Origin: an uncultured Pseudomonadales bacterium | Lineage (GTDB): Bacteria > Patescibacteriota > Microgenomatia > UBA1400 | Assembly: GCA_964589815.1 (NCBI GenBank) | Contig: CAZPUR010000002.1 | Coordinates: 19,466 to 83,465 of the forward strand | DNA length: 64,000 bases | Reading direction: 5' to 3' | Shown here: one piece after another, positions 6,381 through 63,810 of the stretch | How the letters are laid out: the number at the start of each line of letters is the position of its first letter | Position numbering within the stretch: the first letter of the stretch is position 1 | Made by a program: the position numbers and the translations under genes | The notes under the pieces: model-generated | What the model was told of the DNA's origin: nothing | Database searches by the model: none | What the model saw: the letters and a program-made list of their open reading frames with translations, nothing else

Positions 6381-6386
6381 TTGCTA

Positions 6387-9196: not shown

Positions 9197-9204
9197 TGAT
9201 AGTA

Positions 9205-19907: not shown

Positions 19908-19911
19908 TTTA

Positions 19912-31112: not shown

Positions 31113-31236
31113 AAATATGAACTAATTAAAATTATCTGTTATTTTACTTTCTTATTTTTCCTCTGTCAATTTTTTTGCTTTTTTGCTTTTTCTTAACTTC
31201 TTTTTTAGTTTTTTTTCTTTTCCTCCTTAGCAACCT

Positions 31237-31277
31237 TCTTATACTTCGGTATACTAAAAGTATACTAGAGTATAAGC
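31237..31277. promoter_or_regulatory. 41-bp repeat copy 1 (candidate operator) upstream of the yerC-like gene
   Basis: TCTTATACTTCGGTATACTAAAAGTATACTAGAGTATAAGC; contains inverted repeat TATACT-AG-AGTATA; overlaps TTGACA (31277-31282). Confidence 0.5.
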
Positions 31278-31313: not shown

Positions 31314-31769
31314 ATGCCCAGGGTTTCAAAGGCCAGAAAAGTATCTTCAAAGAAAAAAGAGCTCTTTATTGATGACTTCTATTCGGCCATAACTTCTTTT
31401 AAAGACAAGTATGAAGTCCAATCATTTTTTGAAGATATGCTTACTACAGAAGAAAAGTTGATGCTTGCTAAACGTTTTCAAGTAGCCATGATGCTCAAAC
31501 TTAACTATCTTTGGAGTGAAATAACAGATAGAGTAAAGGTAACCACCTCTACGGTAGCTCAAGTGGCCCAGAGAATAAAAAGATATAAGGGTGGGCTTTT
31601 AACTGTTGCCCAGAGAATCATTTCTTTCAAAGAAAAAAAGTTGAATCAGTGGCAGAAACATAAAAAGGAAAAATATTCGGATTTAGGAGCAGAAATGGTC
31701 AAAGCAGGTTTGGGAATTTTGATTCAGAATAAACAAAGAATTAGGAAGAAAAAGTCAATTACATCATAA
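31314..31769 (+). CDS. yerC: TrpR-like YerC/YecD family DNA-binding protein
   Basis: FFEDMLTTEEKLMLAKRFQVAMML...TTSTVAQVAQRIK matches the YerC/YecD pattern. Confidence 0.7.
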   Translation: MPRVSKARKVSSKKKELFIDDFYSAITSFKDKYEVQSFFEDMLTTEEKLMLAKRFQVAMMLKLNYLWSEITDRVKVTTSTVAQVAQRIKRYKGGLLTVAQRIISFKEKKLNQWQKHKKEKYSDLGAEMVKAGLGILIQNKQRIRKKKSITS

Positions 31770-31800
31770 TTAATAAAGCAATTAATAAAGCAAGGTCATT

Positions 31801-31841
31801 TCTTATACTTCGGTATACTAAAAGCATACTAGAGTATAAGC
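31801..31841. promoter_or_regulatory. 41-bp repeat copy 2, 8 nt upstream of comEA
   Basis: 40/41 identical to 31237-31277. Confidence 0.5.
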
Positions 31842-51315: not shown

Positions 51316-51657
51316 ATGGCCGATGCTCATCATGATCCTGATGATAAAGGTATTTTTCTTATGGGGCATGATCAAACTTTAGCAGCCTTAACAGAAGAAG
51401 GTTTTCTTGAGAAAACAAAACATGTTGTAATTCAACCAGGTTCAGATCCAAAAGAAACATTATCATTTATGGAAGAAGTTTTAAGATTACACAAACCTGA
51501 TTCGATCTTTTTCCGCATACCTACAAGTCCTGAGACTTGTCATAGCTTTGCTGCCTTAAATGAAAGAGCTATAGCTGGAGCCATAAATGCTATTTCTGCA
51601 GTAGGCGGAGAGCTGGTTTTGATAGATTTTGCCCCAGACGAATTTTCTATTTATTAA
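51316..51657 (+). CDS. Orphan protein (113 aa)
   Basis: ORF only. Confidence 0.45.
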   Translation: MADAHHDPDDKGIFLMGHDQTLAALTEEGFLEKTKHVVIQPGSDPKETLSFMEEVLRLHKPDSIFFRIPTSPETCHSFAALNERAIAGAINAISAVGGELVLIDFAPDEFSIY

Positions 51658-51798
51658 TTTTTTTATAAATTCTATTTAGGGAAAGAGATTTATGTTTGAT
51701 GAAAAAAGATATGAAAGCATTCTATGAGAGAAGAGAAAGGTCTATTGCTGTTTTTCAAGAATCAGGAAGCGAAGAATTCTAGGCTCTAAATTCTTATT

Positions 51799-52011
51799 AT
51801 GCCTACTTACAGAGGAGAATTAATTACCCAGCCAGAAGCCATGGCAAAACTGGAACAGCTCCAGCGTTTGGAAGAATTGCAGGGTGATGAGATTGCCTGG
51901 CAATTAAACCCAGAGGAATTGGATTGTTTGAGATTTGGCGATAGGCCTGCTGATTGGCTAGGCGAGGAAGCGGAGTATGTATCAGGTATTTTAAAAGAAT
52001 TCGGCTTCTAA
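51799..52011 (+). CDS. Orphan small acidic protein (70 aa)
   Basis: ORF only. Confidence 0.4.
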   Translation: MPTYRGELITQPEAMAKLEQLQRLEELQGDEIAWQLNPEELDCLRFGDRPADWLGEEAEYVSGILKEFGF

Positions 52012-52035
52012 ATAACTTTTAACTTTGCACTTTTT

Positions 52036-52064
52036 CGTCCAGAGGACAACCATCCTCTGGATGG
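52036..52064. terminator. Hairpin element between convergent genes (possible bidirectional terminator)
   Basis: CGTCCAGAGGACAACCATCCTCTGGATGG, stem TCCAGAGGA/TCCTCTGGA; related to 24215-24242; T-run follows. Confidence 0.5.
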
Positions 52065-52078
52065 AACTTTAATCTTTT

Positions 52079-53311
52079 TTAGTATCCTGGCCCTACAATC
52101 ACCCAAGAAGCCATATCCGGCCTAAAGATATTTTGGCAAAGCTCATTAATTTCTTCCAAACTAATATTTTTTATTGCTTCCATCACATCTTCCGGAGTTT
52201 GTTCTTTTAAATTAAAAAAGTAACCCAGAATATAAAACAAACCCAGTTGCAAAGCCTGGTCTAATTTTGCCAATAAACTATTCTGATAAAAAATTTTGGC
52301 CTTATCCAATTCTTCTTGGGTAATGGTTCCTGAGGCCAATTGGCCAAATTGATTTAGGACTTCTTCCTTAACCTCATTTTCTTTAGTTGAAAGGCAGCTG
52401 GCTTGGAGTAAAAACAGACCGGCCTCAGCCGTCATTCTGACCCAGGGCCTGATGCTGGTGACCAGTCTTTTATCCTGCAAGGTTTTTAATCTCTGGTTAT
52501 TTCTGCCTCCAGATAAAATATTAATCAAAAGGCTTTGGACTACTCTTTTGTCCGAGCTGCGGCCATAGCAGGGAAAACCAAAAGTTAAAATCGAAGCTTT
52601 ACCCATTTGGCTTAATTTATCCTGAGTTACTTTGGTTTGGGAAAAATTAAAGGGAGTGGGGTTTTGTCTTTCTCCCGGAGGAATAACCTCGACCTCATTT
52701 TGCAAATTTTCCCAAGCCAAATCCTCGTCAGGTCCAATAACGAGCAAAAGGCAGTTTTTGGAAACATAATATTGGTCTTTAAACTTGGTTAAAAGTTCAG
52801 GAGTGATATTTTTAACTGCCTCTCCTGAGCCTAATATATCAAAACCTATAGAATTATAATTAAATATATCATTAGTAAGTTTATTTAAGCTTAAAAACTG
52901 AGGCTGTCTGGAAGAAAGCTCGATTTCTGTTAAGGTTAAATTTTTTTCATTTTCCAGGCCTTTTTGGGTTAAGGCCGGCGTGAAAATAATGTTCATAAAA
53001 ATTTTCATTGCCTGTGAAAAATAATCTTTAAGGCATGAAAAGTAAAAAAGGCTGTATTCTGGATTAACCGTCGGTACAAAACTCAGACCCAGATTGTCTA
53101 AAGCTTCAGCCAATTGTTTTTTGCTGGGGTAGTCCTGGTTGCCCTGAAGACAAATATTGGCATAAAACCGGGAAAGACCATGAGTTTCTTGAGTTTCAAA
53201 CCTGGAGCCGACGCCGACCAGTAAAATAGCCGTTAAAACTCTGGCGCCGGGATATTGAAGATAAACTGAGGCTAGACCATTGGGAAAAACATGAGTTTTA
53301 ATATTTTCCAT
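52079..53311 (-). CDS. M16 (pitrilysin) family protein lacking the HxxEH zinc motif (non-catalytic subunit type)
   Basis: M16 fold pattern; GLSRFYANICLQG where HxxEH is expected. Confidence 0.7.
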   Translation of the reverse strand: MENIKTHVFPNGLASVYLQYPGARVLTAILLVGVGSRFETQETHGLSRFYANICLQGNQDYPSKKQLAEALDNLGLSFVPTVNPEYSLFYFSCLKDYFSQAMKIFMNIIFTPALTQKGLENEKNLTLTEIELSSRQPQFLSLNKLTNDIFNYNSIGFDILGSGEAVKNITPELLTKFKDQYYVSKNCLLLVIGPDEDLAWENLQNEVEVIPPGERQNPTPFNFSQTKVTQDKLSQMGKASILTFGFPCYGRSSDKRVVQSLLINILSGGRNNQRLKTLQDKRLVTSIRPWVRMTAEAGLFLLQASCLSTKENEVKEEVLNQFGQLASGTITQEELDKAKIFYQNSLLAKLDQALQLGLFYILGYFFNLKEQTPEDVMEAIKNISLEEINELCQNIFRPDMASWVIVGPGY

Positions 53312-53369
53312 TAAGAGCTAGTATATAATATTTTTCCTTATTTTTCCACAGAAGCCTTATCAGAGGATT

Positions 53370-53693
53370 TTAAGCAGGTATAACCGCGACTGTTTCCAGA
53401 GATTTAATCCTTTGTTGGTGATAAAAGAGTTTATCTTCGTTTTTTTCAATTCTTCTTTCATGATTATCAACAATGCTATTGGTTTCCTTTAGGGTTTTTT
53501 CTATCCTATCCAAGATGGGGATGATAGCGGTTTGGACAAAACTGACCGTTTCGCTAATAATTTCCTTTTTTTGCTTAGTTAAAGCTTTATCCAGGGTTGA
53601 GTTTAGTTTTTTGTCCCATTTCTGGTCCTGTTTACTTAAAGCTTTATTCAAGGCTTTATTCAAATCAGTTTTAGTTACCGGTTCACTAGTCAT
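53370..53693 (-). CDS. Lys/Glu-rich coiled-coil protein (107 aa), leaderless-type
   Basis: On the minus strand TTGACA-16-TAATAC ends 7 nt before ATG 53693; track start 53714 would lie inside the promoter. Confidence 0.5.
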   Translation of the reverse strand: MTSEPVTKTDLNKALNKALSKQDQKWDKKLNSTLDKALTKQKKEIISETVSFVQTAIIPILDRIEKTLKETNSIVDNHERRIEKNEDKLFYHQQRIKSLETVAVIPA

Positions 53694-53721
53694 GTTTTTA
53701 GTATTACAGTTCATTTTTTAG

Positions 53722-53742
53722 TTGTCAAGCTGAGCTTGACAA
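53722..53742. promoter_or_regulatory. Palindrome providing back-to-back divergent -35 boxes
   Basis: TTGTCAAGCTGAGCTTGACAA; the plus-strand TTGACA (53736-53741) is followed by 18 nt and TATAAA (53760-53765). Confidence 0.45.
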
Positions 53743-53853
53743 AATCCTCCTTTTCATAGTATAAAACTATAAGTTTATAAACTCCCAAGGTGGGAGTTTA
53801 TATTTATGAGCCTAAAGGTGATTTGACATACACATTTGTGATATAATTCCCTT

Positions 53854-54005
53854 TAAGTCCGGTTGATATAACGCTAGCTATTGAAAAACTGCCCAATATG
53901 GTTAGTTTTTTATTAACTTACCTTTGAAGTAAGGAAAAATGCCTAGCCAAAAACCGATCAGATTTTTGAAGTTCAAAAGCCATGCAAATGCGCATGGCTT
54001 TTGTT
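53854..54005 (+). ncRNA. Candidate small transcript (about 150 nt) between an extended -10 promoter and an intrinsic terminator; function unknown
   Basis: TGaTATAAT at 53839-53847; terminator at 53975-54005; contains a 24-codon ORF (53939-54013, MPSQKPIRFLKFKSHANAHGFCWL) that runs through the terminator. Confidence 0.3.
53975..54005 (+). terminator. Intrinsic terminator
   Basis: AAAA-GCCATGC (53979-53985)-AAATGC-GCATGGC (53992-53998)-TTTTGTT. Confidence 0.65.
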
Positions 54006-54212
54006 GGTTATAGGGTTTAGTTTTTTTATTGTTTTTTTGAAACAATAAACAAAGTGAACCTTATTACAAAAAGGAACACTTTATTCTTTGGCAGACTTAA
54101 GTGAGCTTAAAAGCTAGTTCACCCTGAGCCTGTCGAAGGGCTCTTTGACATCGCAAACAAAAGATTTATTTTTCCGAGCCGGAACTTAGGGAGTTAGAAA
54201 AGCGCCTAAAAA

Positions 54213-54303
54213 CACCTCCGAGGTGAGGTTGCGCCTGCGGTGCACCTCGGAGGTGGAGGATAAAAATTTCCCTAGGTGTCTTGAGTATTTCACCTCCCAG
54301 GTG
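54213..54303. repeat. Three CACCTC[CG/CC][GA]AGGTG palindromes at the left edge of the GC-rich cassette
   Basis: 54213-54225, 54243-54255, 54291-54303. Confidence 0.85.
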
Positions 54304-54392
54304 GAATTTATTTATCTAGTTCTTTAGGTTTCGGTTCGGAAAAAAATAGTGGGCCTTAGCCCACAAAAAAATCCACACAAGGAGGTGGCAAA

Positions 54393-56069
54393 ATGGACGC
54401 GAAGAAGGCGTTCAAAACGGCCACCTTCTTCCTGGTGGTCGGGGTATTGGTGGGGGCAGTTCTTTGGACTCGCCCTGTCTTTGCACAGGAGTCAACATCG
54501 ATAAATGAGAAGATTGCCAGCGAAGCGCGGTTGCTCATCGGCACAGCACCCTACGCGCCCGATCCAAGTGACTGCGGCCAGAACCCATGTTCTGGCTACT
54601 ACGTCTGTACTGATGTAGTCGCAGTCGCCACGGAAAGGGCTGGGGTGCCGATCGCCGAGGATTCGTGCGCCTGCAGTTTGATGAGGCGCGCGGAATACCA
54701 GCGCCAGTACTTCATGGGCGATTCAGTCCGTGGAGGAAATGATGCGCTTCGACGCCACTACGAGGCTGAGGGTTCAGCCGCTCCACCGGCCGCAGGCAAC
54801 ATCTTGCTCTACTCTGCTCACGTAGCAGTAGTAGTGGATGTTCGATCTGCGGGGGAGGGAAGGTTGGAACTTTGGACTGTTGAGGCCAACGGTGGCTCAG
54901 CCAGGGTGAACATCAACTCCCGGAAGTATGAGCTGGAAAAGCTCGGAGAGGGTTGGTATTTCATTTCTGGTCGCAATCATGACTCTATCTTCGGGTGGGG
55001 TGTGATTGATGAAACAGAGCCATTGGCACCAAGCAGTTCAGCTTCGCGCTGGCCTTACCCAGTGGAGCAAGCCCCAAAATCAAAAGGCGAATGGGGATGG
55101 GTTGGGCCAGCAGTAGCTGGGTTGACCATCATTGCCTTAATCTTGTTTTTCTTTGCCCTGGTTCCTCCAGGGTCAAGAATGGCAGCAATCAAGTTCATGG
55201 CCAAAAAAGCCTGGAAAGGCTTTAAATGGACTATGAACAAGACTTTGGAGCTGTGGGGGAAGCTGATGATCCTTCTCGAACCATCTGAGGAGGAAAAAAG
55301 ACGCTTCTACTGGCTCCAACATGGCCGAGGTCGAGGCGGCTGCCACTATTACTTTGTAGGCGCTTTCTGGGGAGCAATTCTTTGCTCCTGCGTTTTGGTT
55401 TTGATGGTAATCAGGTTACTGGTTTTAGGTGGCATGCCGTTGGAGAACCTGGTTGGTGGTCGTCAGACCTGGGTTGGCCGGGCCGTTTCTCGGGTGAGTG
55501 AGATCGACCCGGAAAATGTGGCCTACGGTTTGATCCCTGCTGATGAACAGAAGAAGTGGGATCAGGCTTTGCTGGAAACGTCGGCCCTGCCGACATTCCC
55601 GATTACTTACTGGACAGGGAGTGAAGTGAGTTTCCACTGTCCGGAAAGAATCTGGAGCGCAGCTAAGGCTGCGGCCAGCAAACACGGTTGCGATCCGCTC
55701 TTGGTTGTGGCGATAGGCCACTCAGAGGGACCGAGTTACAACCAAAATGCCATCTCGCGGGCTGGGGCCAAAGGAACCTGGCAATTCATGCCAGGCACCT
55801 GGGATTTATATTGGCCCCCAGGCCCGAGTCAACCCGGCCGGGAAAATGATTCGGCAGGAGCTGATGCTGCTTGCCGGATGGAGCTAGAACTGGAGTTGGA
55901 AGAACAAACTTCGGAGCTAGCTTTTGCCAGGCGGTTTAACGGGGCTGATGAAGGTCGGTGTTGGAACTGCGCTGACACGGATGGAGGCCCTGAAGATCCG
56001 GCTGTTCGCCAGGCCAAGTACGCTTGGAAGCTCTGGCAGCAGCTTCTCGCAGAAACAGGAGGTGAGTAG
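54393..56069 (+). CDS. Bifunctional peptidoglycan hydrolase: N-terminal CHAP/NlpC-P60-like amidase, two TM helices, C-terminal SLT lytic transglycosylase
   Basis: Signal/anchor; CHAP-like triad context GYYVCTDVV ... GNILLYSAHVAVVVDV ... WTVEANGG; TMs VGPAVAGLTIIALILFFFALV and YYFVGAFWGAILCSCVLVLMVIRLLVLG; SLT motifs AIGHSEG...AGAKGTWQFMPGTW; AAGGAGG SD. Confidence 0.8.
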   Translation: MDAKKAFKTATFFLVVGVLVGAVLWTRPVFAQESTSINEKIASEARLLIGTAPYAPDPSDCGQNPCSGYYVCTDVVAVATERAGVPIAEDSCACSLMRRAEYQRQYFMGDSVRGGNDALRRHYEAEGSAAPPAAGNILLYSAHVAVVVDVRSAGEGRLELWTVEANGGSARVNINSRKYELEKLGEGWYFISGRNHDSIFGWGVIDETEPLAPSSSASRWPYPVEQAPKSKGEWGWVGPAVAGLTIIALILFFFALVPPGSRMAAIKFMAKKAWKGFKWTMNKTLELWGKLMILLEPSEEEKRRFYWLQHGRGRGGCHYYFVGAFWGAILCSCVLVLMVIRLLVLGGMPLENLVGGRQTWVGRAVSRVSEIDPENVAYGLIPADEQKKWDQALLETSALPTFPITYWTGSEVSFHCPERIWSAAKAAASKHGCDPLLVVAIGHSEGPSYNQNAISRAGAKGTWQFMPGTWDLYWPPGPSQPGRENDSAGADAACRMELELELEEQTSELAFARRFNGADEGRCWNCADTDGGPEDPAVRQAKYAWKLWQQLLAETGGE

Positions 56070-56129
56070 GGAAAAGTTTAGGTTAGTGGAAGACTTTTAA
56101 AATCAGGACATGAAACGGAGGCAAAAGAA

Positions 56130-57158
56130 ATGTTTCAGTGGATTATCATGATGTTGCCGTTTTTGTTGGCTCTGGTGGCCGGTGCTGCGGGCTTCTGGAT
56201 GCTCAAGAACGGTTTGGGAGCCAAGAACGCTCTCAAGGTAATCGGTGGCGGTATAGTCGGCGTCGTTGCCGTTGCCTTTTTAGGGATAAGACTATTGGAC
56301 TTTGCAATTGGGCAGTTTGAGAAAGACTTGCCTGAAAGCAAAACCATGGCCTACCTAGAGAAAGGACTGGCGACGGAGTTTGACTATGCGGCCTACAGCG
56401 AAACGGGTGAAGGTGTAGGCATTGGTCCGCCCTGGAGTCAGCCTGTTCAATCTGACGCCGGTGTGCCACCTGCCGTACCTGCTGCAACGCCCGTTGCTGG
56501 CGTACCTGCGGCCACACCAATTCCGGTTTATCCGGCACAGGTCGAAGCCGCGCCCGAGCTGCAAAAGGAGCTACTGCCCGAAGGACCGCAGCGAGTGCAG
56601 TGCCTGGTTGATGCCCTTCTGGGCGCCAGCATCGGCAATGCGCAGAGCGGCTCAACTACGTGGTTTCCGCGTGGGACGATCTGGAATCTGAGAGTGAAAC
56701 GTGGTGTCGGTTTTTTCTATAAGAACCGGCACTGGGTTTCGTCTCCGGCGTTGGGTATTACGCAGGAGATCCAGATTGGCTACGGCTTGGGCAGACAGCT
56801 CGACAAGGCCAGCTCTGATACGGACGGCATCTTTTACGGCACGGGGGAATGGCCTCCCTCTTGCTACGTTGCGGTGACATCGCCGCCACCGACTGTTGTG
56901 CTTCCGCCTGACACTGGCTCGAGCACTCCGCCCGTCGACACCGGCCCTTGCACCAATGCAGAGCTCCTCCCCGGAGAGGAAAGCCAATACTGGTTGAAAA
57001 ATACCAGCGATGGCTCCTTTACCTGGGTGGAAGGGGGCTTGCCAGAGGCAACCTTTCGGACCACAGACGGACGGCAGGTGTCTGTCTGGGGGTGGCTCTG
57101 TAGGACTGAGCTGCAGTACGGCGTTGACCCGACCTACGAAGTCTGGGTTTTGCCGTAA
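56130..57158 (+). CDS. Membrane protein (2 N-terminal TM helices, Pro/Ala-rich linker, Cys-containing C-terminal domain), unknown family
   Basis: GGAGG SD; hydrophobic N-terminus; PPAVPAATPVAGVPAATPIPVYP linker. Confidence 0.65.
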   Translation: MFQWIIMMLPFLLALVAGAAGFWMLKNGLGAKNALKVIGGGIVGVVAVAFLGIRLLDFAIGQFEKDLPESKTMAYLEKGLATEFDYAAYSETGEGVGIGPPWSQPVQSDAGVPPAVPAATPVAGVPAATPIPVYPAQVEAAPELQKELLPEGPQRVQCLVDALLGASIGNAQSGSTTWFPRGTIWNLRVKRGVGFFYKNRHWVSSPALGITQEIQIGYGLGRQLDKASSDTDGIFYGTGEWPPSCYVAVTSPPPTVVLPPDTGSSTPPVDTGPCTNAELLPGEESQYWLKNTSDGSFTWVEGGLPEATFRTTDGRQVSVWGWLCRTELQYGVDPTYEVWVLP

Positions 57159-57175
57159 GGCTAGGAGGCCAGAAG

Positions 57176-57256
57176 ATGGCCTACCTAGTCAGATCTCCAC
57201 CCGACCCGCCGATTCGGGCAAATCTGTTGTCAGTTACCTTACATATAAACAGGTAA
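57176..57256 (+). CDS. Possible 26-codon Pro-rich leader ORF (MAYLVRSPPDPPIRANLLSVTLHINR)
   Basis: AGGAGG (57163-57168) 7 nt upstream of ATG; ORF runs into the 5' arm and inner stem of the 57203-57297 hairpin. Confidence 0.3.
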   Translation: MAYLVRSPPDPPIRANLLSVTLHINR

Positions 57257-57297
57257 CTGTTCCAAGGCTGGACAGAGCAAGTTCGAATCGGCGGGTC
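57203..57297 (+). other. 95-nt nested hairpin element (ncRNA, attenuator or recombination site; unknown)
   Basis: Outer 13-bp perfect stem GACCCGCCGATTC (57203-57215)/GAATCGGCGGGTC (57285-57297); inner 9-bp stem CAGTTACCT (57231-57239)/AGGTAACTG (57251-57259). Confidence 0.7.
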
Positions 57298-57530
57298 AAC
57301 CGGAGGTTCTTTTGTTTGCGAGCAATTCTTCCGCATCTGGCGGAAGGCTGCACGCGGCATAGCTTAAAATCTTTTTTTCTCTCATGCTTGAGAGAAAGTT
57401 TATAAAAGGTTTTAGGTTTATGTTGTGTGCAGTATTTGGTTGTTGTCCGATGTGTATCGGGCCTGAAGAGCTTAAAAAAGCGAAACAACTTAAAGTCAGT
57501 TTATTATTAATATGTTTTGAAAGGAAAAAA

Positions 57531-58613
57531 ATGCCTAGATCAGAATTGCCAGGACTATTAGGCCAAACTCTTTTAGAGCAGGGGATAGAAGGAAAGAAGG
57601 AGACTTCTTCTATTAGTACTGAAGGGATTGAAGTAGGCAAACCAGTCGGCTTAGGTAATGTTTTTAGAGTAAATAAGGCAGAGAAGGCAGGGTTGGCTTT
57701 AACTACCACTAATAGTGAAACTGGGAGAAGGCAAGTAATTGCTCGTATTCCTCCGGGGACTCAGGGTAAGGTGAGTCGTAGAAATGAGACAGTTTATGCT
57801 CAGGTTGGCCCTATTTTTGCTCAGATCAGAACTGAAGCTGGAGCAAGACGAGTAAAAGAAGGAGAGAATTTAGTCAGAAGGAGACAAAAGGTTCAAAGAG
57901 GTCAATCTTTAGCTGATCAAGCCTTAATTGCTCAACAAGAGATTGAATCAGCCCGGATCTATCGCAAGGCAGCTGAGCAAGATCGGTCTGAACATTTCCA
58001 AGCGCAACAAGCGATGGCTGATTTACAGTTAACTCATTCACTTAGAGAGGGAAATGGAAAAGGCAAGGGACTTTTAAGATTATTAGGTGATGGCTTAACT
58101 GATGTAGCTGTAGCTGCTTTATCAGGTGAGCCTAGGGCTGGAGGCGAAACAGCTGTCCTTGATTTTAATAGAGGGAGTATGCAAGTTAATGCCCCTACGC
58201 GAAGATCCGGGCAAACTAATGTTTCAGTAGCAAAAATAGTTGATGGCACTTTTAGACCTGAGGTGACTCTTGATCCTTTGTCTCGAGCAGTTAATAGGGT
58301 TAGAGGTTTGCTTGGAAAAAAACCAGTGGCTGTTTTGGGTGTTGGTGTTATTCGCTGGCGTCATACTTTAAGTCAGGAAATAGTTGGGGGCGAAGTTCAC
58401 AAAGAGCCTTTAGACGTTTTTGCTCAGCTTAATCAAGGCATTGAAGCTTTAAGAGTACTTAGTAGAGAGTCTTTACTCATAGAAGGAGTGCCTACTTTTG
58501 CTGATTTAGGCTTAGATGGACCAGAATTAGAAGCCCAGTCTGGAACAGAACCACATGAACCTCAGACCAAAGAACAAATTAGAGCGTTATTAAGAAAAGG
58601 AGAACAAAAATAG
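57531..58613 (+). CDS. Orphan soluble protein (360 aa), first gene of the ten-gene operon
   Basis: GAAAGGAAAAAA before ATG 57531; ORF is open from 57384, alternative start 57420 would add MLCAVFGCCPMCIG...; coiled-coil-like central region. Confidence 0.6.
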   Translation: MPRSELPGLLGQTLLEQGIEGKKETSSISTEGIEVGKPVGLGNVFRVNKAEKAGLALTTTNSETGRRQVIARIPPGTQGKVSRRNETVYAQVGPIFAQIRTEAGARRVKEGENLVRRRQKVQRGQSLADQALIAQQEIESARIYRKAAEQDRSEHFQAQQAMADLQLTHSLREGNGKGKGLLRLLGDGLTDVAVAALSGEPRAGGETAVLDFNRGSMQVNAPTRRSGQTNVSVAKIVDGTFRPEVTLDPLSRAVNRVRGLLGKKPVAVLGVGVIRWRHTLSQEIVGGEVHKEPLDVFAQLNQGIEALRVLSRESLLIEGVPTFADLGLDGPELEAQSGTEPHEPQTKEQIRALLRKGEQK

Positions 58614-58701
58614 CCATGAGTAAGTGTATTTATAAATAATATTATAGGTTTGACATATTTAATATATTTAGTATAATAAATTTGTCTGAAAGGAAATATA
58701 T

Positions 58702-59811
58702 ATGAAGAGTGAAATTCCTAATATCGTCACCGGTGAACCAGCTTTTGATTCAGTAGGAGCTGAGTCTGAAGCAGTTACTCCAAGATCTGGTTTGGTTGGT
58801 AGCGTTGAAAGCATTTTAGATAATACAAAACAAGCTTTAGGTATAGGCGAGGAAATTCCAGGAGCTGTTACTGATAGGCGTTCCAGAGAGGTCTTAAAAA
58901 AATTAGCTGAGGATCAACCTGAGAGACTTGATCTTCGTGTTTTTAGGGAAGAGGTGGGAACTGGTATTTTTGGACTAAGAAGGAAAAAAGAGGCAGTCAG
59001 GCCAAGAGCTAGGGTTATAGATTCAAGCAATGCTTCATCAATGGTTGATGAGCAGGGAAATGATGCTAGACCTACGGGCAGAGGTAAAATTTTACGTCCA
59101 GGCGAAAGAATGGGTCTTTTGGTAAGAAATAGTGGAAAAGAAATAGCTCCAGGGGATGCTAGATTCCCTAAAAGTTCAGAACAAACAGCAGAAAGCAAAC
59201 GCTTAAAAGAATACTTAGATAGAAAGCATCCTGATAGTGATACCCGTAAGGGCTATATGAGGAGGGTTGCCGATGTAGCACAAATAACTCAGGCGAGACA
59301 GGCTAATATAGAAGTGGCTTTAAGCGAAGAAGAAAAAGTATGGGAAGGACAGCAAGTCAGGACTCAGCTAAACAGCAATCCCATAAAATTGGAAACCACA
59401 GGGATAAGTGGACTTCTCAAAGTCATTGTAGGAGGTGGGACCTGGGGAAATTCTGTTGAAGTGGGAGGAATTTATCACAATTGGACGATTCCCATGGGAA
59501 GACAAAATAAGATACCGATTAGACATGAAACAATTGCTGGCGGTAGTATTTTTTACAGCTCTGATCCACCAAAGTGGTTTGATCTAATTAATACCATATT
59601 AAAGCGAGCCACTCGTGGGAAGAAGGCTCTCGAAGCCCCCATTGGTAGAGTTACTTTGAAAACCTCAACAGGCGCAGCTATTGGTTCAGTAACAGTAGCT
59701 CATCCAGAGAAGGTAGTTCTTCAATTAACTGACCTTGCCGTGAAAGCGAGCAATACTAATGTTCAACCCAGACCTATTCCTGAACCGATAAAACCAGGAG
59801 ATTTAATCTAA
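58702..59811 (+). CDS. Orphan soluble protein (369 aa)
   Basis: GAAAGGAAA SD; no TM, no nucleotide-binding motif. Confidence 0.6.
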   Translation: MKSEIPNIVTGEPAFDSVGAESEAVTPRSGLVGSVESILDNTKQALGIGEEIPGAVTDRRSREVLKKLAEDQPERLDLRVFREEVGTGIFGLRRKKEAVRPRARVIDSSNASSMVDEQGNDARPTGRGKILRPGERMGLLVRNSGKEIAPGDARFPKSSEQTAESKRLKEYLDRKHPDSDTRKGYMRRVADVAQITQARQANIEVALSEEEKVWEGQQVRTQLNSNPIKLETTGISGLLKVIVGGGTWGNSVEVGGIYHNWTIPMGRQNKIPIRHETIAGGSIFYSSDPPKWFDLINTILKRATRGKKALEAPIGRVTLKTSTGAAIGSVTVAHPEKVVLQLTDLAVKASNTNVQPRPIPEPIKPGDLI

Positions 59812-60113
59812 TGGAGAATTTAATAAAACATTTTGGACGAGGTATTTATCATTTAACAGAAGACAGTTTAAGTTTTGCCAAGCGGGGCAAGGCAGTTCGA
59901 CAGGGTAGAGTTCATCCAAAAATAGCATTTGATATGATAGTGGAGGATGCTGTTGGGCCCATGCCTCTTTTAGTCCGAACAGAATCTTGTCTTGCTGGCT
60001 TCCTAGGAGTACCAGATTGTATGGGAAAGATTTTAGGACGTGAACGTATCTCTACGGAAGAAGCATTGACACATGTAAGAGAGATTTTTGGACTTTCAGA
60101 ACAAGAGGTTTAG
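59811..60113 (+). CDS. Orphan protein (100 aa)
   Basis: TAATG overlap with previous gene. Confidence 0.55.
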   Translation: MENLIKHFGRGIYHLTEDSLSFAKRGKAVRQGRVHPKIAFDMIVEDAVGPMPLLVRTESCLAGFLGVPDCMGKILGRERISTEEALTHVREIFGLSEQEV

Positions 60114-60137
60114 TGTTAAAATAAAACCAAGGAAAAA

Positions 60138-60404
60138 ATGGCTCAAGAGCAGGTTTACACTGCTGCCCAAATTCGAGAAGCTAATGCAGATCAGTTAGCA
60201 GGAATTATGGTTAGGGCCGCTGGTTTTGATACTGGTGACTGGAGTCTTTGGGGTTTGGGTCTTGAGGCTCTGACCAGGGGAGGAGTAGACTTAATATCAA
60301 GACTTGGAGGAGACCGAGCAATTGACCAGTTAAGGCAAGCAGTTTCTGGGGAATTAAGAGAATTAGATTTGATCGAAGAACCACCCATACTCCAACCTGT
60401 TTAA
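60138..60404 (+). CDS. Orphan protein (88 aa)
   Basis: AAGGAAAAA SD. Confidence 0.5.
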   Translation: MAQEQVYTAAQIREANADQLAGIMVRAAGFDTGDWSLWGLGLEALTRGGVDLISRLGGDRAIDQLRQAVSGELRELDLIEEPPILQPV

Positions 60405-60415
60405 TTAAAAAACAT

Positions 60416-60631
60416 ATGTCAGAAAAATTATCAGTGCCAGAAAACGTTACTTTATTAGAAGCAGCTGCTATTGCCGCTGCCCGTTATCCTGATAAAGCTT
60501 TGTTTGGAGAATTGCCGGAGGGACGTATAATAGTAAGTGTAGAGGAAGTTATTAGAATGTCACAAAGTGACTCAGGGTTTAGATTAGCTCTTGAAGAATG
60601 CGCTCAACAAGGAGGCTTGCCCGAGAGATAA
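60416..60631 (+). CDS. Orphan protein (71 aa)
   Basis: ORF in operon context. Confidence 0.45.
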   Translation: MSEKLSVPENVTLLEAAAIAAARYPDKALFGELPEGRIIVSVEEVIRMSQSDSGFRLALEECAQQGGLPER

Positions 60632-60645
60632 AAAGGAAAAACGAA

Positions 60646-61155
60646 ATGGAAAAAGCACCCGTTTTTGACCATAGACAAGTAACAGCAAAAACAAGAACTT
60701 TAGTTGCAAGTGGAATGATTGGGCCAGAACAGGTTTTTGGCGAAGCTGATACACCTTCAGAAAGAAGTTTAGCCGTACTTTTAGGAGAAGATTTTCGTCT
60801 TTCAAGAGAAGATGTTGAAGGCTCCCTGGATGTTTATGACACAAGAAGAGTATTAATTGAGGTTCGTTTAAATGAAGCCACCGGTCAATTATCTCATCTT
60901 CGTTATCAACCAGGTTTTGATTCAAGGACAGGCAGGGTGCTCTCTGAACTTCAAGATCTTCCCGGGGCAGATTTATATAAACATAATCCGGACGCAGCCG
61001 AAGCCACCCGTACTTTAAGAACCCAAAAAAAACACTTTTCTTCTACGGCCCATCCTTTTGATGAGGCTAAAACAGTTAGACAAAGAGGTGGCGACCCAGA
61101 TTATAGAATTCCCAAACCTCCATCCAGTTTTTTACTTCAGGAAGAAAGAAAATAA
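60646..61155 (+). CDS. Orphan protein (169 aa)
   Basis: AAAGGAAAAA SD before ATG 60646; track start 60598 overlaps the previous gene. Confidence 0.5.
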   Translation: MEKAPVFDHRQVTAKTRTLVASGMIGPEQVFGEADTPSERSLAVLLGEDFRLSREDVEGSLDVYDTRRVLIEVRLNEATGQLSHLRYQPGFDSRTGRVLSELQDLPGADLYKHNPDAAEATRTLRTQKKHFSSTAHPFDEAKTVRQRGGDPDYRIPKPPSSFLLQEERK

Positions 61156-62108: not shown

Positions 62109-63413
62109 ATGAACTTTAAGCCTCAAATTAAAACTTTAAGCAATGGCCTGCGTTTAATTACCCTTAACTTACCTCAATCTCCATCAGTGACCGCTCTATT
62201 AATGGTTAAAGTTGGCTCCCGTTATGAAAAAGAAAAATTGGCAGGCATTTCCCATTTTTTAGAACATATGGTTTTCAAGGGCACTAAAAAATATCCCACC
62301 TCGTTTGACTTAACCTCAACCGTAGACGCCATTGGCGCCGAATTCAATGCTTTCACCACTAAAGAATACACTGGTTTTTATGTTAAGTCTGCGGTTCAAC
62401 ATCTTGATTTAGCCTTGGACGTTTTGTCCCAGTTGGTGTTTCAACCGCTCCTGCCGGAAAAAGAAATGCAAAAAGAAAAAGGGGTGATTATTGAAGAAAT
62501 CAATATGTATGAGGATAATCCTATGGTTAAAGTAGGCATAGATTTTGAGATACTTTTGTATCCTGATAGCCGTTTGGGCTGCCCGACCATTGGCTATAAA
62601 AAATCAGTTAAAGCCATGAAACGCAGCAACTTTTTAAATTATCTTGGCCAATATTACCGGCCCAAAAATATGATTTTAGGGATTGTGGGAGGAATGAAAA
62701 AAGTGCAAAGTGCAAACCTGCCTGCCGGCAAGGCAGGGTGCAAAGTGCAAAATTTTAATCTGAATAAAGGACCTACGATTGTGGATCGATTATTCGAACT
62801 TCAACCAGTTAAATTTATCCAGCAAAAGCCTGCCTTACAGTTTAAATATAAAAAAACTAACCAAACCCATTTTTGTTTAGGAGTTAGAGCCTTACCCCAC
62901 GGTCATAAAGACCGTTACGTGATGGCGGTTTTATCCACTATTTTAGGCGGCAATATGAGTTCCAGACTATTTATGGAAGTCAGAGAAAAAAGAGGTTTGG
63001 CTTATTATATCAGAAGTTCAATCAACACTTATTTTGATCATGGTTATTTTATGACTCAGGCAGGCACAGATGTTAATAAGGCGGGAGAGGCGATAAAAGT
63101 GATTTTAAATGAACTACGCAATACGCATTACTCCCTACGTTCTAGTGAATTAAAACGAGCCAAGGAATACCTTAAGGGGAAGTTGGCTTTGAGTTTGGAA
63201 GACTCCCAAGAAATTGCCAGTCTTTTGGTGGAAGACTTTTTATTGGAAGATAAAATTAGAACTCCTAAAGAGATTATTGAGGGAATAGAAAAGGTGAGCT
63301 TGAGTGATATTAAAAGAGTTGCCCGACAAATTTTTGTTAATCAAGGCCTGAATTTAGCCATCATCGGACCATATAAAGACGAAACTAGATTTGCAAAGAT
63401 ATTGAAAATATAG
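62109..63413 (+). CDS. M16 family zinc metallopeptidase (catalytic, HxxEH)
   Basis: GISHFLEHMVFKGT; leaderless-type promoter TGaTACAAT ends 6 nt before ATG; in-frame inserts 62701-62752 and about 63111-63140. Confidence 0.88.
   Translation: MNFKPQIKTLSNGLRLITLNLPQSPSVTALLMVKVGSRYEKEKLAGISHFLEHMVFKGTKKYPTSFDLTSTVDAIGAEFNAFTTKEYTGFYVKSAVQHLDLALDVLSQLVFQPLLPEKEMQKEKGVIIEEINMYEDNPMVKVGIDFEILLYPDSRLGCPTIGYKKSVKAMKRSNFLNYLGQYYRPKNMILGIVGGMKKVQSANLPAGKAGCKVQNFNLNKGPTIVDRLFELQPVKFIQQKPALQFKYKKTNQTHFCLGVRALPHGHKDRYVMAVLSTILGGNMSSRLFMEVREKRGLAYYIRSSINTYFDHGYFMTQAGTDVNKAGEAIKVILNELRNTHYSLRSSELKRAKEYLKGKLALSLEDSQEIASLLVEDFLLEDKIRTPKEIIEGIEKVSLSDIKRVARQIFVNQGLNLAIIGPYKDETRFAKILKI
62717..62737. repeat. 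GC-rich palindrome CCTGCCTGCCGGCAAGGCAGG flanked by AAGTGCA words, in frame in the M16 gene
   Basis: Flanks AAGTGCAAAGTGCAAA (62701-62716) and GTGCAAAGTGCAAAA (62738-62752); reads VQSANLPAGKAGCKVQ. Confidence 0.9.
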
Positions 63414-63456: not shown

Positions 63457-63810
63457 ATGTATAAAAAACTAACCGTTTGGCAGCGTTCGATGCAGTTAAT
63501 CGTTGCCGTTTACCAATTAACTAGCAAGCTTCCTACTTCAGAACAATATGGCTTATCTTCACAAATGAGAAGAGCAGCTATTTCGATTCCTTCTAATATT
63601 GCTGAGGGGTATAGAAGGAAAAGTAGGAAAGACTATCTAAGATTTTTATCTATTGCTAATGGTTCTGCTTCTGAGTTAGAAACCCAGGTAGAGATAATTA
63701 AGGTCTTGCCTAAAATGAAAAACCTTGATACAGTAAAAGTAGAGAATTTACTAAACGAAGTTTTAAAAATGTTAAATGTAATGATTAGAAAATTAGGGAG
63801 TAGGGAGTAG
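63457..63810 (+). CDS. Four-helix-bundle protein (23S rRNA intervening-sequence protein family)
   Basis: LTVWQRSMQL...YGLSSQMRRAAISIPSNIAEGYRRKSRKDYLRFLSIANGSASELETQ. Confidence 0.9.
   Translation: MYKKLTVWQRSMQLIVAVYQLTSKLPTSEQYGLSSQMRRAAISIPSNIAEGYRRKSRKDYLRFLSIANGSASELETQVEIIKVLPKMKNLDTVKVENLLNEVLKMLNVMIRKLGSRE

Follow-up and report, generated by a model that had tools for sequence, protein, structure and literature searches.

The GC-rich island at 54100-57370 of the window (the whole 64,000-nucleotide stretch of DNA that was analysed) probably belongs to a small and conserved family of bracketed cassettes of coding sequence that is found in AT-rich, Patescibacteria-type chromosomes, in which GC is kept by selection for RNA structure. 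The probability of this reading is put at roughly 0.6. The new features are the excess folding of the coding sequences (CDSs), a motif and inverted repeat that bracket the cassette, a covarying 5' leader hairpin, and the pairing of the Shine-Dalgarno (SD) region of gene A with codons 10-13. Base-pairing along the whole genes is in large excess of the level attainable from protein sequence, codon usage and GC3, and such pairing beyond the need of protein or composition would explain GC richness in an AT-rich genome.

Composition and gene content of the island

The mean GC of the island is 0.546, compared to 0.396 in the rest of the window, and the island ranks top among all 3271-nt windows (mean 0.405, sd 0.036), the best of those without overlap to it reaching 0.482. 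The core (54400-57299) has a GC of 0.47-0.63 in 200-nt windows. At the left edge GC rises from 0.31-0.35 to 0.57 within about 300 nt, at the right edge it falls from 0.585 to 0.355 over a similar distance (about 300 nt), and both steps coincide with gene edges. The original prediction of a sharp island with an abrupt transition on both sides was therefore correct, and its hand counts of GC (34/60, 40/60, 22/60 and 26/60) were exact; its range of 57-67% GC, taken from two 60-nt samples, is too high as an average, while the enrichment itself is real. GC3 is 0.19-0.42 in 47/47 other ORFs of the window, lower than in genes A and B (Table 1). The Gly+Ala+Arg+Pro share of the island proteins is 0.33 (versus 0.21), and 10/108 backbone segments deviate at least as much as the island in GC-normalised dinucleotide signature.

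The cassette encodes a predicted envelope-anchored peptidoglycan hydrolase with a CHAP-like domain, transmembrane (TM) segments and an SLT domain, together with its partner B. The identification of gene A as a cell-wall hydrolase is borne out by the SLT domain, which passes the curated Pfam cut-off (E 1e-4); the CHAP-like domain of the family is sub-threshold in Pfam (E 0.0025 in two members), and C72, H143 and E164 of gene A are invariant. Gene B is a conserved, predicted membrane partner of gene A. Its homologues lie directly 3' of an A-type gene in L096 (E 4e-24), L095 (E 6e-15) and L011 (E 5e-6), and the L011 version has SH3_3 at its end. Both genes have the strong ribosome-binding sites (RBS) that had been claimed for them. 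In L096 (E 1e-44) and L095 (E 2e-19) the corresponding position is taken by an orthologue of the next gene, with a GC3 of 0.25 in both. Genes A and B and this AT3-rich neighbour are syntenic in these loci, where protein identity is 27-47% and the contrast in composition is the same.

Table 1. Positions of the cassette features in the window
Feature	Position	Strand	Description
Terminator-like hairpin	53974-54003	+	Closes the preceding transcription unit; 12-bp stem (terminator scan); inverted repeat I7
Left-edge motif	54140-54150	+	GCTCTTTGACA (consensus GCaCTTTGACA); directly 5' of IR-L
IR-L, left bracket arm	54151-54164	+	TCGCAAACAAAAGA; perfect 14-nt complement of 57308-57321
5' leader hairpin	54170-54343	+	Basal stem 54170-54196 with 54317-54343
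Three palindromes	54213, 54243, 54291 (54213-54303)	+	CACCTCNGAGGTG; inside the apical insertion of the leader hairpin
RBS of gene A	54379-54387	+	AAGGAGGTG
SD region of gene A	54379-54389	+	AAGGAGGTGGC; pairs with 54420-54430 (inverted repeat I15)
Gene A	54393-56069	+	558 aa; GC 0.552, GC3 0.576; hyper-structured CDS; predicted signal peptide; Cys/His domain of CHAP-like type at about residues 30-210; TM segments; SLT lytic transglycosylase at the C-terminus
Anti-SD segment	54420-54430	+	GCCACCTTCTT; codons 10-13 of gene A
RBS of gene B	56117-56121	+	GGAGG
Gene B	56130-57158	+	342 aa; GC 0.576, GC3 0.627; two predicted N-terminal TM helices, Pro/Ala-rich linker, C-terminal domain with Cys
3' trailer	57160-57310	+	Hairpin 57160-57189; long hairpin stem 57203-57216 / 57284-57297
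IR-R, right bracket arm	57308-57321	+	TCTTTTGTTTGCGA; marks the right edge of the GC island
Syntenic neighbour	57531-58613	+	About 360 aa; GC3 0.25; without excess folding; outside the bracket

Folding of the coding sequences

The CDSs of the family fold about 19-42% more stably than their synonymous-codon shuffles (z -7 to -17), whereas the controls, from the window or GC-matched, deviate by no more than about 7% in either direction (z +1.5 to -3.7). The A genes gave z values of -6.9, -7.8, -15, -8.9 and -16.7, the first being that of gene A of the window (19% excess in minimum free energy), for which the partner gene B gave -4.0. The excess was 42% and 40% in L095, and 30% and 16% in L096. 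Among the controls, six genes of the window gave z values of -0.1 to -2.9, the lowest deviation being that of the syntenic neighbour (-0.1), nine GC-matched LeuS genes showed an excess of -1.4 to +6%, and a relative in a 67%-GC genome (L097) showed 0.0%. A scan of the whole window gave -10.2, -8.9, -5.7 and -7.0 kcal/mol per 150 nt for the island bins and +1.2 to -5.2 for the others, and in a further folding run the island segments, from gene A, had z values of -6.3 and -5.9 compared to +0.45 and +0.30 for the controls, the latter value belonging to the syntenic neighbour.

RNAalifold detected no conserved global fold across the CDS (covariation term +1.5). The CDS structure is generic, and it is the shuffling tests rather than covariation that point to selection for it. 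Because the excess is found on both strands, with the sense strand only slightly stronger, a role at the level of DNA or of single-stranded DNA is possible.

Bracketing repeat, leader and trailer

The left-edge motif occurs once in the window and recurs at the corresponding place in L002 (twice), L006, L008, L010, L011 and L093-L096; hairpins like the terminator-like one of the window stand 5' of it in L002, L006, L011 and L094. The motif was scored as the -35 element of a predicted TTGACA-16-TATTTT promoter, and the class-2 loci lack a properly spaced -10. If this promoter is used in the window, IR-L would lie in the promoter spacer, outside the transcript.

The complementarity of IR-L and IR-R in the window was reached by 0/200 shuffles, and the complement of IR-L at IR-R is the only one within 50-64 kb. 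When leader and trailer were co-folded, IR-L was fully paired (ddG -16.7 kcal/mol). Inverted-repeat pairs of 11-17 nt were found in 10 cassettes and were significant in 4/5 tested by shuffling, with an IR-L complement that is unique within the locus in 7/8 loci checked. The arms were paired in 10/10 leader and trailer co-folds (8 fully, L011 and L096 within one base), with ddG values of -11 to -27 kcal/mol, and their sequences differ between loci but change together. In terms of the strand involved, the G.U test of the helix favoured sense in 3 loci and antisense in 2. The two arms may pair the ends of the RNA.

The region of the 5' leader hairpin folds with a z of -8.6. Its basal stem is kept in L011, L094, L095 and L096, where 96.3% of cells are paired (0/500 shuffles), 9 pairs have compensatory changes and about 30/134 cells are G.U, which together indicate a sense-strand RNA structure. 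The apical insertion, of about 110 nt, is specific to the window and holds the three palindromes that had been taken to mark the left edge. These are present, those at 54213 and 54243 being exact and that at 54291 having one mismatch, and in each of them one half is SD-like (GAGGTG) and the other anti-SD-like (CACCTC). Palindromes of this type occur 6 times in the window compared to 0.03 expected by chance, the others being at 10424, 10448 and 30246. They were not found in the homologous leaders of other loci and therefore do not define the island edge. The hairpin predicted at 57203-57297 exists as described, with perfect 14-nt arms in a trailer region that folds with a z of -8.1. No tRNA, tmRNA or Rfam match was found in the trailer. 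Most other loci also have a GC-rich 3' hairpin ahead of IR-R, for which L002B has no room.

Pairing of the Shine-Dalgarno region of gene A

The minimum-energy fold of positions -25 to +60 of gene A encloses the AUG. The duplex of SD and anti-SD has a dG of -24.6 kcal/mol, which 0/500 shuffles reached, compared to a mean of -5.7 (sd 3.1, minimum -14.1) for the same measure in 46 other genes of the window. The anti-SD segment can instead pair downstream, within codons 10-17. This alternative hairpin (A5 columns 28-50) is conserved, has compensatory changes (CG<->GC at 33:45 and GC<->AU at 34:44) and is the minimum-energy state in L006. Sequestration of the SD is weaker in class-2 loci, as 37/500 shuffles reached it in L006 and L008.

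Relatives of the cassette

An exhaustive HMMER search against 1.84 billion representatives returned only 72 matches, of which about 10 bear the N-domain. The close relatives with flanking DNA (about 10 distinct loci) are all GC-rich islands in an AT-rich, Patescibacteria-like context; besides the window they include L002 (A and B cassettes), L006/L007/L008, L011, L093/L094 and L095/L096. The LeuS of the window is 49-52% identical to those of Jorgensenbacteria, Saccharibacteria and Paceibacterota MAGs, in agreement with the expected Patescibacteria-type organism. Between lineages, differences per codon amount to 0.59-0.68 at position 3 compared to 0.25-0.37 at positions 1 and 2, and 53-65% of the codons for identical residues differ synonymously, while GC3 is still 0.58-0.67. 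Synonymous sites between cassette lineages are thus near saturation, and the cassette genes are old and coding. High GC is a long-standing property of the family and matches exactly the unit between the motif with IR-L and the 3' hairpin with IR-R.

The N-terminal catalytic domain varies among family members (CHAP-like, M23 or none). L006 and L008 form a recombination mosaic in which 180 nt are identical, the flanks are about 80% identical and the C-terminus is replaced. In L010 the cassettes stand in tandem and share end modules. The cassette neighbourhoods also differ, with Rho/VirD4-like genes in L002 and NusG/L11 in L093; the window cassette sits between M16 genes.

Proposed mechanism and alternative explanations

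As to the purpose of the CDS structure, we infer that selection for nucleic-acid secondary structure, acting at synonymous sites and at some amino-acid sites, would hold G+C up against AT-biased mutation. The transcript would be a very stable mRNA, with its ends paired through IR-L and IR-R, that is translationally locked. To open translation, the SD:anti-SD helix would have to be displaced; candidates for this include the alternative hairpin, a processing event, a helicase or a change in temperature. If this is true, a wall hydrolase that could lyse the cell itself (or act on a host) would be produced late or in tightly controlled doses.

The original prediction regarded the island as recently acquired from a high-GC donor. 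In this reading the wall hydrolase might come, for example, from an actinobacterial host or a plasmid of that host, and its GC would be an un-ameliorated relic. The cassette does resemble horizontally acquired islands in its sharp GC/GC3 step at both edges, repeat-marked edges and accessory-type genes, and distant N-domain relatives lie in GC-rich contexts (P0045, on a 67%-GC contig with E 1e-11, and P0031). The richness of its proteins in Gly, Ala, Arg and Pro would fit such a donor, but is also expected from long residence in a GC-richer replicon. Our data nevertheless make this origin very improbable. The close relatives are all equally GC-rich within AT-rich genomes, and L097, the sole relative whose organism is truly GC-rich (67% GC, GC3 0.83), is distant (E 1e-11). 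The GC3 of the islands has been retained despite the saturation of synonymous sites and is far under that of L097, and the deviation is conserved across diverged lineages, in synteny with the AT3-rich neighbour. No relatives were found on plasmids, phages or IMG/VR viral contigs or among GTDB representatives, and the island edges carry no integrase, tRNA or direct repeat, which speaks against capture from a host or host plasmid; transfer would also leave the folding excess over synonymous shuffles unexplained. An assembly chimera, in which a piece of another, GC-richer organism was joined into the contig, would account for the compositional step alone, and its probability is negligible. The consistency of the junctions was confirmed by an independent Logan assembly (L001, 7350 nt), which is identical to window positions 51353-58702 across both of them, and about 10 other loci, obtained from different samples with different assemblers, share this architecture and likewise have their edges at conserved motifs; the island is therefore not an assembly artefact.

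It is unlikely, although less so, that the cassette is a mobile or rearranging DNA element, whose inverted repeats would be the terminal repeats of a non-autonomous element or inversion sites relative to the outside TTGACA, and whose GC and folding would stem from its own past, such as passage through an intermediate of single-stranded DNA or RNA. Integron and mobile insertion cassettes are likewise promoter-less-looking ORF units bounded by short inverted repeats. In 10 cassettes the positions of the repeats coincide exactly with the edges in composition, and the differing neighbourhoods of L002, L093 and the window, the tandem arrangement in L010, the mosaic alleles with swapped domains and the folding excess on both strands are all in keeping with mobility. 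On the other hand, no transposase, integrase or invertase gene was found in the 64-kb window, the Pfam tables for the other loci show none either, and neither target-site duplications nor attC-type RYYYAAC/GTTRRRY cores are apparent by eye. A transposase would require conserved ends, but the repeat sequence varies from locus to locus; every independent assembly has the cassette in a single orientation; gene A, gene B and the neighbour are syntenic in three lineages; and the leader hairpin and SD helix are clearly RNA-level features. GC-biased gene conversion (gBGC) at a recombination hot-spot, where allelic exchange in a fast-evolving surface-enzyme gene lifts local GC without selection for structure, would suit the L006/L008 mosaic and the shuffled N-terminal domains. 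This process is improbable here, because it raises GC3 but cannot yield a folding excess of 19-42% over shuffles of the same GC3, and leaves the bracket, leader hairpin and SD pairing unexplained. The effects of gBGC reported in bacteria are far below a GC3 shift of 20-30 points.

Comparison with known systems

Gene A is similar to the bifunctional, VirB1-like peptidoglycan hydrolases that serve conjugation/T4SS in monoderms (TraG of pIP501, PrgK of pCF10 and CwlT of ICEBs1), in which an SLT-type lytic transglycosylase likewise occurs together with a peptidase-type Cys/His domain and a membrane anchor, and the L002 cassette lies 3.3 kb from a VirD4/TraD-like ATPase. In contrast to these enzymes, the domain order of gene A is reversed (CHAP-like N-terminal, SLT C-terminal), a multi-TM linker lies between the domains, and the CHAP match is under the Pfam cut-off. 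No T4SS gene was found in the 64-kb window. Patescibacterial VirB1 homologues often bear M23 or LysM domains (PMC12102498), and such domains are present in relatives P0005, P0006, P0011 and P0013; the term GC content had 0 occurrences in the searched text of that T4SS paper.

At the RNA level, the processing stems of rRNA operons (RNase III) are comparable as long-range inverted repeats around a GC-rich, highly folded RNA in an AT-rich genome, although the RNA bracketed here is protein-coding, its helices are only 11-17 bp and it has no Rfam match. The genome-scale ordered RNA structure (GORS) of some positive-strand RNA viruses is likewise a CDS-wide folding excess over shuffles without conserved individual pairings, and the excess of 19-42% in the cassettes is at or above the values reported for such viruses. 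The cassette differs in being a chromosomal bacterial gene pair with no RNA genome and no replicase, and the GORS papers retrieved concern viruses only.

The hok mRNA of type I toxin-antitoxin systems is very stable; its 5' and 3' ends pair with each other, and its RBS stays sequestered until the mRNA refolds. It encodes an envelope-damaging protein and shows fold-back inhibition. The counterparts in the cassette would be the putative end pairing of IR-L with IR-R and the SD:anti-SD helix, in a unit of about 3 kb, compared to about 0.4 kb for hok, that encodes two large proteins predicted to be secreted or membrane-bound.

Composition of the island

The compositional island proposed from the sequence is real: its GC content was 54.6%, compared to 39.6% for the rest of the window, and the earlier hand counts of GC were all exact. 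Among 3271-nt windows (mean 40.5%, SD 3.6) the island ranked top, and the best non-overlapping window reached 48.2%. The high GC content was as described, while the figure of 57-67% came from two 60-nt samples; the core measured 0.47-0.63 in 200-nt windows. The step in GC content coincided with two co-directional genes, A and B, which together form the cassette; the GC3 of all 47 other ORFs of the window was 0.19-0.42. The 3′ hairpin and both ribosome-binding sites were present as claimed. The dinucleotide relative-abundance distance between the island and the backbone was not significant, and it is uninformative either way because 10 of 108 segments were at least as far from the backbone. A GC-richer stretch in the middle of a giant ORF (approximately 12-14 kb; 0.50-0.53 GC, GC3 just 0.44-0.50) was considered as a second such island and rejected: it folds no more than expected, and its bump in composition is of another kind.

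Coordinates of features in the window and in related loci
Feature	Position	Remarks
Island	54100-57370	
Gene A	54393-56069 (+)	558 aa; GC3 0.576
Gene B	56130-57158 (+)	342 aa; GC3 0.627
IR-L	54151-54164	left inverted-repeat arm
IR-R	57308-57321	right inverted-repeat arm
Shine-Dalgarno (SD) helix	54379-54389 with 54420-54430	
3′ hairpin	57203-57297	
Leader palindromes	54213, 54243, 54291	CACCTCNGAGGTG
Exact copies, giant ORF	10424-10436, 10448-10460	CACCTCNGAGGTG
Exact copy, leuS	30246-30258	CACCTCNGAGGTG
Extended -10	53838-53846	TGATATAAT
24-codon ORF	53939-54013	
Terminator-like hairpin	53974-54003	
M16 peptidase genes	52079-53311 (-), 62109-63413 (+)	
Six-ORF run	57531-61155	first ORF 57531-58613
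bAvd-like ORF	63457-63810	
Giant ORF	9518-18517 (-)	2999 aa
tRNA	6387	sole tRNA of the window
Dispersed repeat	536-582, 10312-10358, 19869-19913, 20287-20316, 45410-45448	30-45 nt
42-nt repeat	31236-31277, 31800-31841	flanks ORF 31314-31769
Tandem 64-nt repeat	5167-5327	after gene 4102-5196
L006 and L008 alleles	1227-3566 and 305-2233	
L010 tandem cassettes	1-9502	
L010 5′-UTR module	1-99, 2623-2721	99 nt, 100% identical
L010 3′ module	2284-2354, 6091-6161	72 nt, 92% identical
L094 A-type gene	1294-2783	stop at 2556

Relatives of the cassette

An exhaustive HMMER search of 1.84 billion representatives returned only 72 matches, approximately 10 of them with the N-terminal domain of gene A, and no relatives of the cassette were found in GTDB representatives, IMG/VR (three alignments), plasmids or phages. 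Every relative with fetchable DNA formed a sharp GC island inside an AT-rich context (eight rows with GC values in the table below), and none of the closest homologues pointed to a donor lineage matching the island composition. The flanks of these islands are host chromosome, with NusG/L11/L1 in L093 and, in L002, Rho and LysM-M23 genes that were 69% and 47% identical to the window copies. The only relative in a truly GC-rich genome, L097 (67% GC, GC3 0.83), is distant and otherwise ordinary.

Gene and flank GC content of the related loci, with the sequence of the left inverted-repeat arm
Locus	Gene GC	Flank GC	IR-L
Window			TCGCAAACAAAAGA
L002, cassette A	0.565	0.39-0.44	AAAGGGTGATAAC
L002, cassette B	0.595	0.39-0.44	
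L006/L007/L008	0.57-0.58	0.35-0.40	AAAGAGGGTGATAACC (L006)
L010			CAGCACAACAAG
L011	0.56-0.58	0.37-0.39	GCAAACGAAGAAC
L093	0.572	0.42-0.47	AGAGGGTGATAACC
L094	0.50	0.28-0.36	
L095	0.59-0.61	0.32-0.41	GTAAAGGAAAACGA
L096	0.55-0.56	0.29-0.41	

Judged by their codon differences, the cassette genes are real and old. Differences at third positions were far above those at positions 1 and 2, and between lineages 53-65% of the codons for identical residues differed synonymously, with GC3 nonetheless at 0.58-0.67. In both L095 and L096 the A-B pair was followed by an orthologue of the first ORF downstream of the island (E = 2e-19 and 1e-44), and the GC3 of this conserved syntenic neighbor was 0.25 in all three loci, the window included. 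The compositional boundary has thus persisted even though protein identity has fallen to 27-47%.

Excess base-pairing in the cassette genes

Folding was compared with that of synonymous-codon shuffles, which keep the protein, the codon usage and the GC3, and the measure for the A genes was the mean MFE of 120-nt windows. The resulting excess (table below) spanned the whole CDS on both strands, with the sense strand slightly stronger. In a dinucleotide-shuffle scan of the whole window the 54-58 kb bins gave -10.2, -8.9, -5.7 and -7.0 kcal/mol per 150 nt, and the rest of the window gave +1.2 to -5.2. Separate folding z-scores were -6.3 and -5.9 for island segments and +0.45 and +0.30 for controls.

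Folding excess over synonymous-codon shuffles
Genes	Excess	z
A genes	19-31%	-6.9 to -16.7
L095 A and B	42% and 40%	about -13
L096 A and B	30% and 16%	-10.0 and -4.5
B genes	weaker	-2.2 to -4.0
Distant SLT+M23 relative (P0005)	28%	-12
Six window control genes		-0.1 to -2.9
Nine GC-matched LeuS genes (0.54-0.62 GC)	-1.4 to +6%	+0.7 to -3.7
Island-flanking genes in L095 and L093	-7 to +4%	
High-GC relative (L097)	0.0%	0

A conserved RNA fold along the whole CDS was considered and rejected, as the RNAalifold covariation term was +1.5 (unfavourable) and just one early hairpin was conserved. The excess is thereby similar to the genome-scale ordered RNA structure of some RNA viruses, which is likewise generic and not a conserved global fold. 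The MFE gap to order-randomised controls was sustained along the coding region, as in those genomes, and an excess of 19-42% is similar in size to that described for RNA viruses with highly structured genomes. No report of a comparable excess in chromosomal bacterial genes was found in the searchable literature.

These results bear on the origin of the island. Compositional islands are routinely read as horizontal transfer, and the original prediction proposed recent acquisition from a high-GC donor. However, close relatives were found only in AT-rich contexts, and the boundary maintained in the window, L095 and L096 is decisive against this reading, so that recent transfer is effectively excluded and the compositional contrast is a long-maintained one. 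In terms of the usual signs of a genomic island, Pfam found no recombinase among the window ORFs, there were no direct repeats at the island, and the sole tRNA of the window lies elsewhere. Chimeric assembly can likewise be set aside for practical purposes, the independent Logan assembly (L001) being identical to window positions 51353-58702 across both junctions. GC-biased gene conversion was weighed as another cause of the island, but the folding excess is beyond its reach. Selection for pairing would be a sufficient reason for the G/C-rich third positions because the excess resides in synonymous choices, and we infer that it sustains them against AT-biased mutation.

Inverted-repeat bracket and leader hairpin

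From edge to edge, 10 cassettes had a common order of parts: in most loci a terminator-like hairpin upstream, then the motif GCaCTTTGACA, IR-L directly after it, a 5′ hairpin that L093 lacks or has only in very short form, a strong SD, the CDS or CDSs, a GC-rich 3′ hairpin (absent in cassette B of L002), and IR-R. The two arms of the window are 14/14 complementary, with 0 of 200 shuffles as good, and their positions show that the bracket matches the island edges. The repeat sequence varied by locus, and both arms changed together. The complement of IR-L was unique within the locus in 7 of 8 loci checked; the exception, L010, has two copies because its cassettes lie in tandem. L010 carries three GC-richer cassettes in all, adjoining AT-richer RNR/NrdR genes, and a 5′-UTR module and a 3′ module recur within it.

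Co-folding of leader and trailer paired the arms in 10 of 10 cassettes (8 fully, L011 and L096 within one base), with a ddG of -11 to -27 kcal/mol. The G.U strand test on this helix was mixed, with three loci indicating the sense and two the antisense strand, and was given no weight as evidence. The leader hairpin shared by the class-1 loci, which starts 4-6 nt after IR-L, is demonstrably a sense-strand RNA structure: 96.3% of its cells were paired (slid controls 29-63%), nine pairs had compensatory changes, and about 30 of 134 cells were G.U. The edge structures had no match in Rfam 15 or to tRNA/tmRNA models, and these empty scans also led to rejection of the T-loop-like GTTCGAATC in the 3′ hairpin as a tRNA.

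The TTGACA of the motif may be read as the classical -35 element of a cassette promoter, and in the window TTGACA-16-TATTTT does score as a promoter. However, the class-2 loci, which include L006 and L008, have no properly spaced -10, and the proposed -10 would fall inside the covarying class-1 leader hairpin. The position of this hairpin and the class-2 loci favor transcription of IR-L, which is probably part of the RNA. A mobile or invertible DNA cassette is a possible but less likely explanation of the bracket. Pfam scans found no T4SS, integrase or transposase genes among the window ORFs. The bracket does not match an integron cassette: by eye the repeats do not fit RYYYAAC/GTTRRRY, and no integrase was found.

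Sequestration of the Shine-Dalgarno site

In minimum-energy folds of the region from -25 to +60, the SD region paired with codons ~10-13 and enclosed the AUG in 6 of 7 A genes. The window helix had an energy of -24.6 kcal/mol, a value reached by 0 of 500 shuffles, and the SD duplexes of 46 other window genes averaged -5.7 kcal/mol (SD 3.1, minimum -14.1). Sequestration was as strong in L011 and L094 and weaker in the class-2 loci, where 3-37 of 500 shuffles reached the observed value. The anti-SD segment can alternatively pair with the next codons, forming a hairpin that is conserved with compensatory changes and is the minimum-energy state in L006. The two competing pairings suggest a two-state switch at the start of gene A.

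The three CACCTCNGAGGTG palindromes had been predicted to mark the left edge of the island. They are present, but were rejected as edge markers, being a window-specific insertion at the apex of the leader hairpin, outside the conserved frame, with exact copies inside leuS and the giant ORF. Each consists of an SD-like half and an anti-SD-like half, so that modulation of the switch is conceivable, and the palindromes could act in this way. The window holds 6 sites of this type compared to 0.03 expected by chance, which points to a genome-wide short palindromic motif that may serve in restriction/modification or be a small repeat. Immediately before the cassette, inspection by eye showed an extended -10 and, after it, a 24-codon ORF that has its own RBS and ends within a terminator-like hairpin; this ORF is a possible leader peptide or attenuator.

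Proteins encoded by the cassette

Gene A encodes a signal peptide, a conserved N-terminal domain of ~200 aa, TM segments and a C-terminal SLT domain. The SLT match (PF01464), over residues 424-470, exceeded the curated cut-off of 21.3 bits with a score of 22.3 (E = 1e-4), and the same stretch matched a PHROG lytic tail protein (E = 1.5e-5). SLT domains are recognised by a catalytic Glu within E-S and, further on, a sequence of the type G-x-x-Q-(F/I)-x-P-x-T-W; gene A contains ...AIGHSEGPSYN...AKGTWQFMPGTW..., with a catalytic-type Glu in E-S and then QF.P.TW, and E178, Q197, F198, T202 and W203 (segment-relative numbering) were invariant in the protein alignment A8. The CHAP match (PF05257) was below the gathering score (18.7 bits against 26, E = 0.0025) and spanned nearly the full profile (5-81 of 81) independently in two members. 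A CHAP domain would be expected to have a conserved nucleophile Cys and, ~60-70 residues further on, a His within a beta-strand; C72 (VCTDVV), H143 (HVAVVV) and E164 were invariant in 5 members. The AlphaFold2 model, built from a 4-sequence alignment, was unusable (pLDDT 42); it predicted, at low confidence, a helix after C72 and a strand at H143. Profile searches against PDB sequences gave chance-level matches only, and the N-domain alignment had no matches in a word-indexed protein search.

The product of gene B has two TM helices, joined by a Pro/Ala linker to a domain that contains Cys, and in the word-indexed search it matched itself only. Clear homologues immediately follow the A-type genes in L096 (E = 4e-24), L095 (E = 6e-15) and L011 (E = 5e-6), the last ending in an SH3_3 wall-binding domain.

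The A family is modular in its domain composition: M23 replaces the CHAP-like domain in P0013 and P0011, P0012 lacks the N-domain, and P0003/P0004 have different C-termini. L006 and L008, from one sample series, form a recombination mosaic in which 180 nt are 100% identical, with ~75% identity further on, and unrelated C-terminal domains lie between conserved flanks and a conserved inverted-repeat bracket, a pattern that indicates replacement of domains inside the cassette by recombination. The A-type gene of L094 appears frameshifted, with the SLT part in another frame after the stop, and is a possible pseudogene or assembly error.

The architecture of gene A is like that of the VirB1-type hydrolases of monoderm and Patescibacterial T4SSs, but the domain order is reversed. 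VirB1-like hydrolases of Patescibacterial T4SSs are treated in PMC12102498, and modular wall hydrolases of this kind are suspected to act where episymbiont and host meet or in the assembly of T4SSs and pili (PMC12102498). No T4SS cluster (VirB4, VirD4, VirB6 etc.) was found near gene A in the 64-kb window. In L002 a sub-threshold VirD4/TraD-like ATPase was found 3.3 kb from the cassette, and an association with T4SSs is thus possible in some genomes.

Meaning of the cassette

The locus is a conserved two-gene hydrolase cassette that is GC-rich and hyper-folded, lies within a bracket, and has an RNA leader hairpin and SD sequestration. In the proposed mechanism, selection on structure would maintain the GC content of the island, and the mRNA would be stable, paired at its ends and gated in translation, its enzyme product being potentially self-lytic or directed at the host. 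Hok-like mRNAs have paired 5′ and 3′ ends and a sequestered SD, and they are processed at the 3′ side and opposed by an antisense RNA encoded in cis; in the cassette, the co-folds favored end pairing throughout, the strand test was mixed, and the SD was sequestered.

With a probability of roughly 0.2, the cassette may represent an undescribed 'armoured' class of bacterial messenger, in which GC content and full-length folding are selected, the 5′ and 3′ ends are paired, and the SD is silenced by its anti-SD. The RNA itself would then be the selected product, and an episymbiont with little transcription could keep it as a lasting reserve of message for the lytic enzyme. A more radical version is an RNA made to outlast normal turnover in the cytoplasm and to withstand RNases, dormancy or passage into a partner cell. 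If the armoured reading is true, GC islands in AT-rich genomes cannot be read as transfer by default. With a GC excess of 15-25 points that is conserved across diverged lineages, stands beside AT-rich syntenic neighbors and is tied to a folding excess, the cassette is a counter-example to the transfer reading, and is better explained by selection on nucleic-acid structure. An RNA that both locks and stabilises its own message would add a new level at which a dangerous enzyme is controlled, and Patescibacteria, with minimal regulatory repertoires, are the setting of this proposed RNA-level control. The motif, the inverted-repeat bracket, the leader hairpin and the SD lock provide precise testable handles. 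No description of such cassettes was found in the searchable literature, which does not prove absence.

Genomic neighborhood

The window is chromosomal, with Rho, PBP1, LeuS, ComEA/ComEC, ArgG/ArgH and ArgS present, and its LeuS is 49-52% identical to those of Patescibacteria MAGs. The island lies in a block of ~9 kb whose genes are unannotated, with an M16 peptidase gene on either side. M16 genes are usually adjacent, as a pair, and this entire block could represent an old insertion or else a specialised locus. The six co-directional ORFs after the island encode Gly/Ala/Arg/Pro-rich proteins (0.32) with very AT-rich third codon positions (GC3 0.24-0.30; four-fold-site GC 0.25 compared to 0.46 in the backbone), and had no excess folding and no Pfam, PHROG or NCBIfam match. 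This run is an opposite compositional anomaly directly adjoining the island.

Close to the window end, one ORF encodes a 23S rRNA intervening-sequence protein/bAvd-like protein (E = 4e-38). Proteins of the bAvd type assist diversity-generating retroelements as accessory factors; up to the window end, neither a reverse transcriptase nor a template/variable repeat pair was seen, and a retroelement connection of the island was rejected, as no repeat connects it with the rest of the window. Other repeats of the window include a dispersed one in both orientations at no fewer than five sites, a 42-nt repeat flanking an ORF, and a tandem 64-nt repeat.
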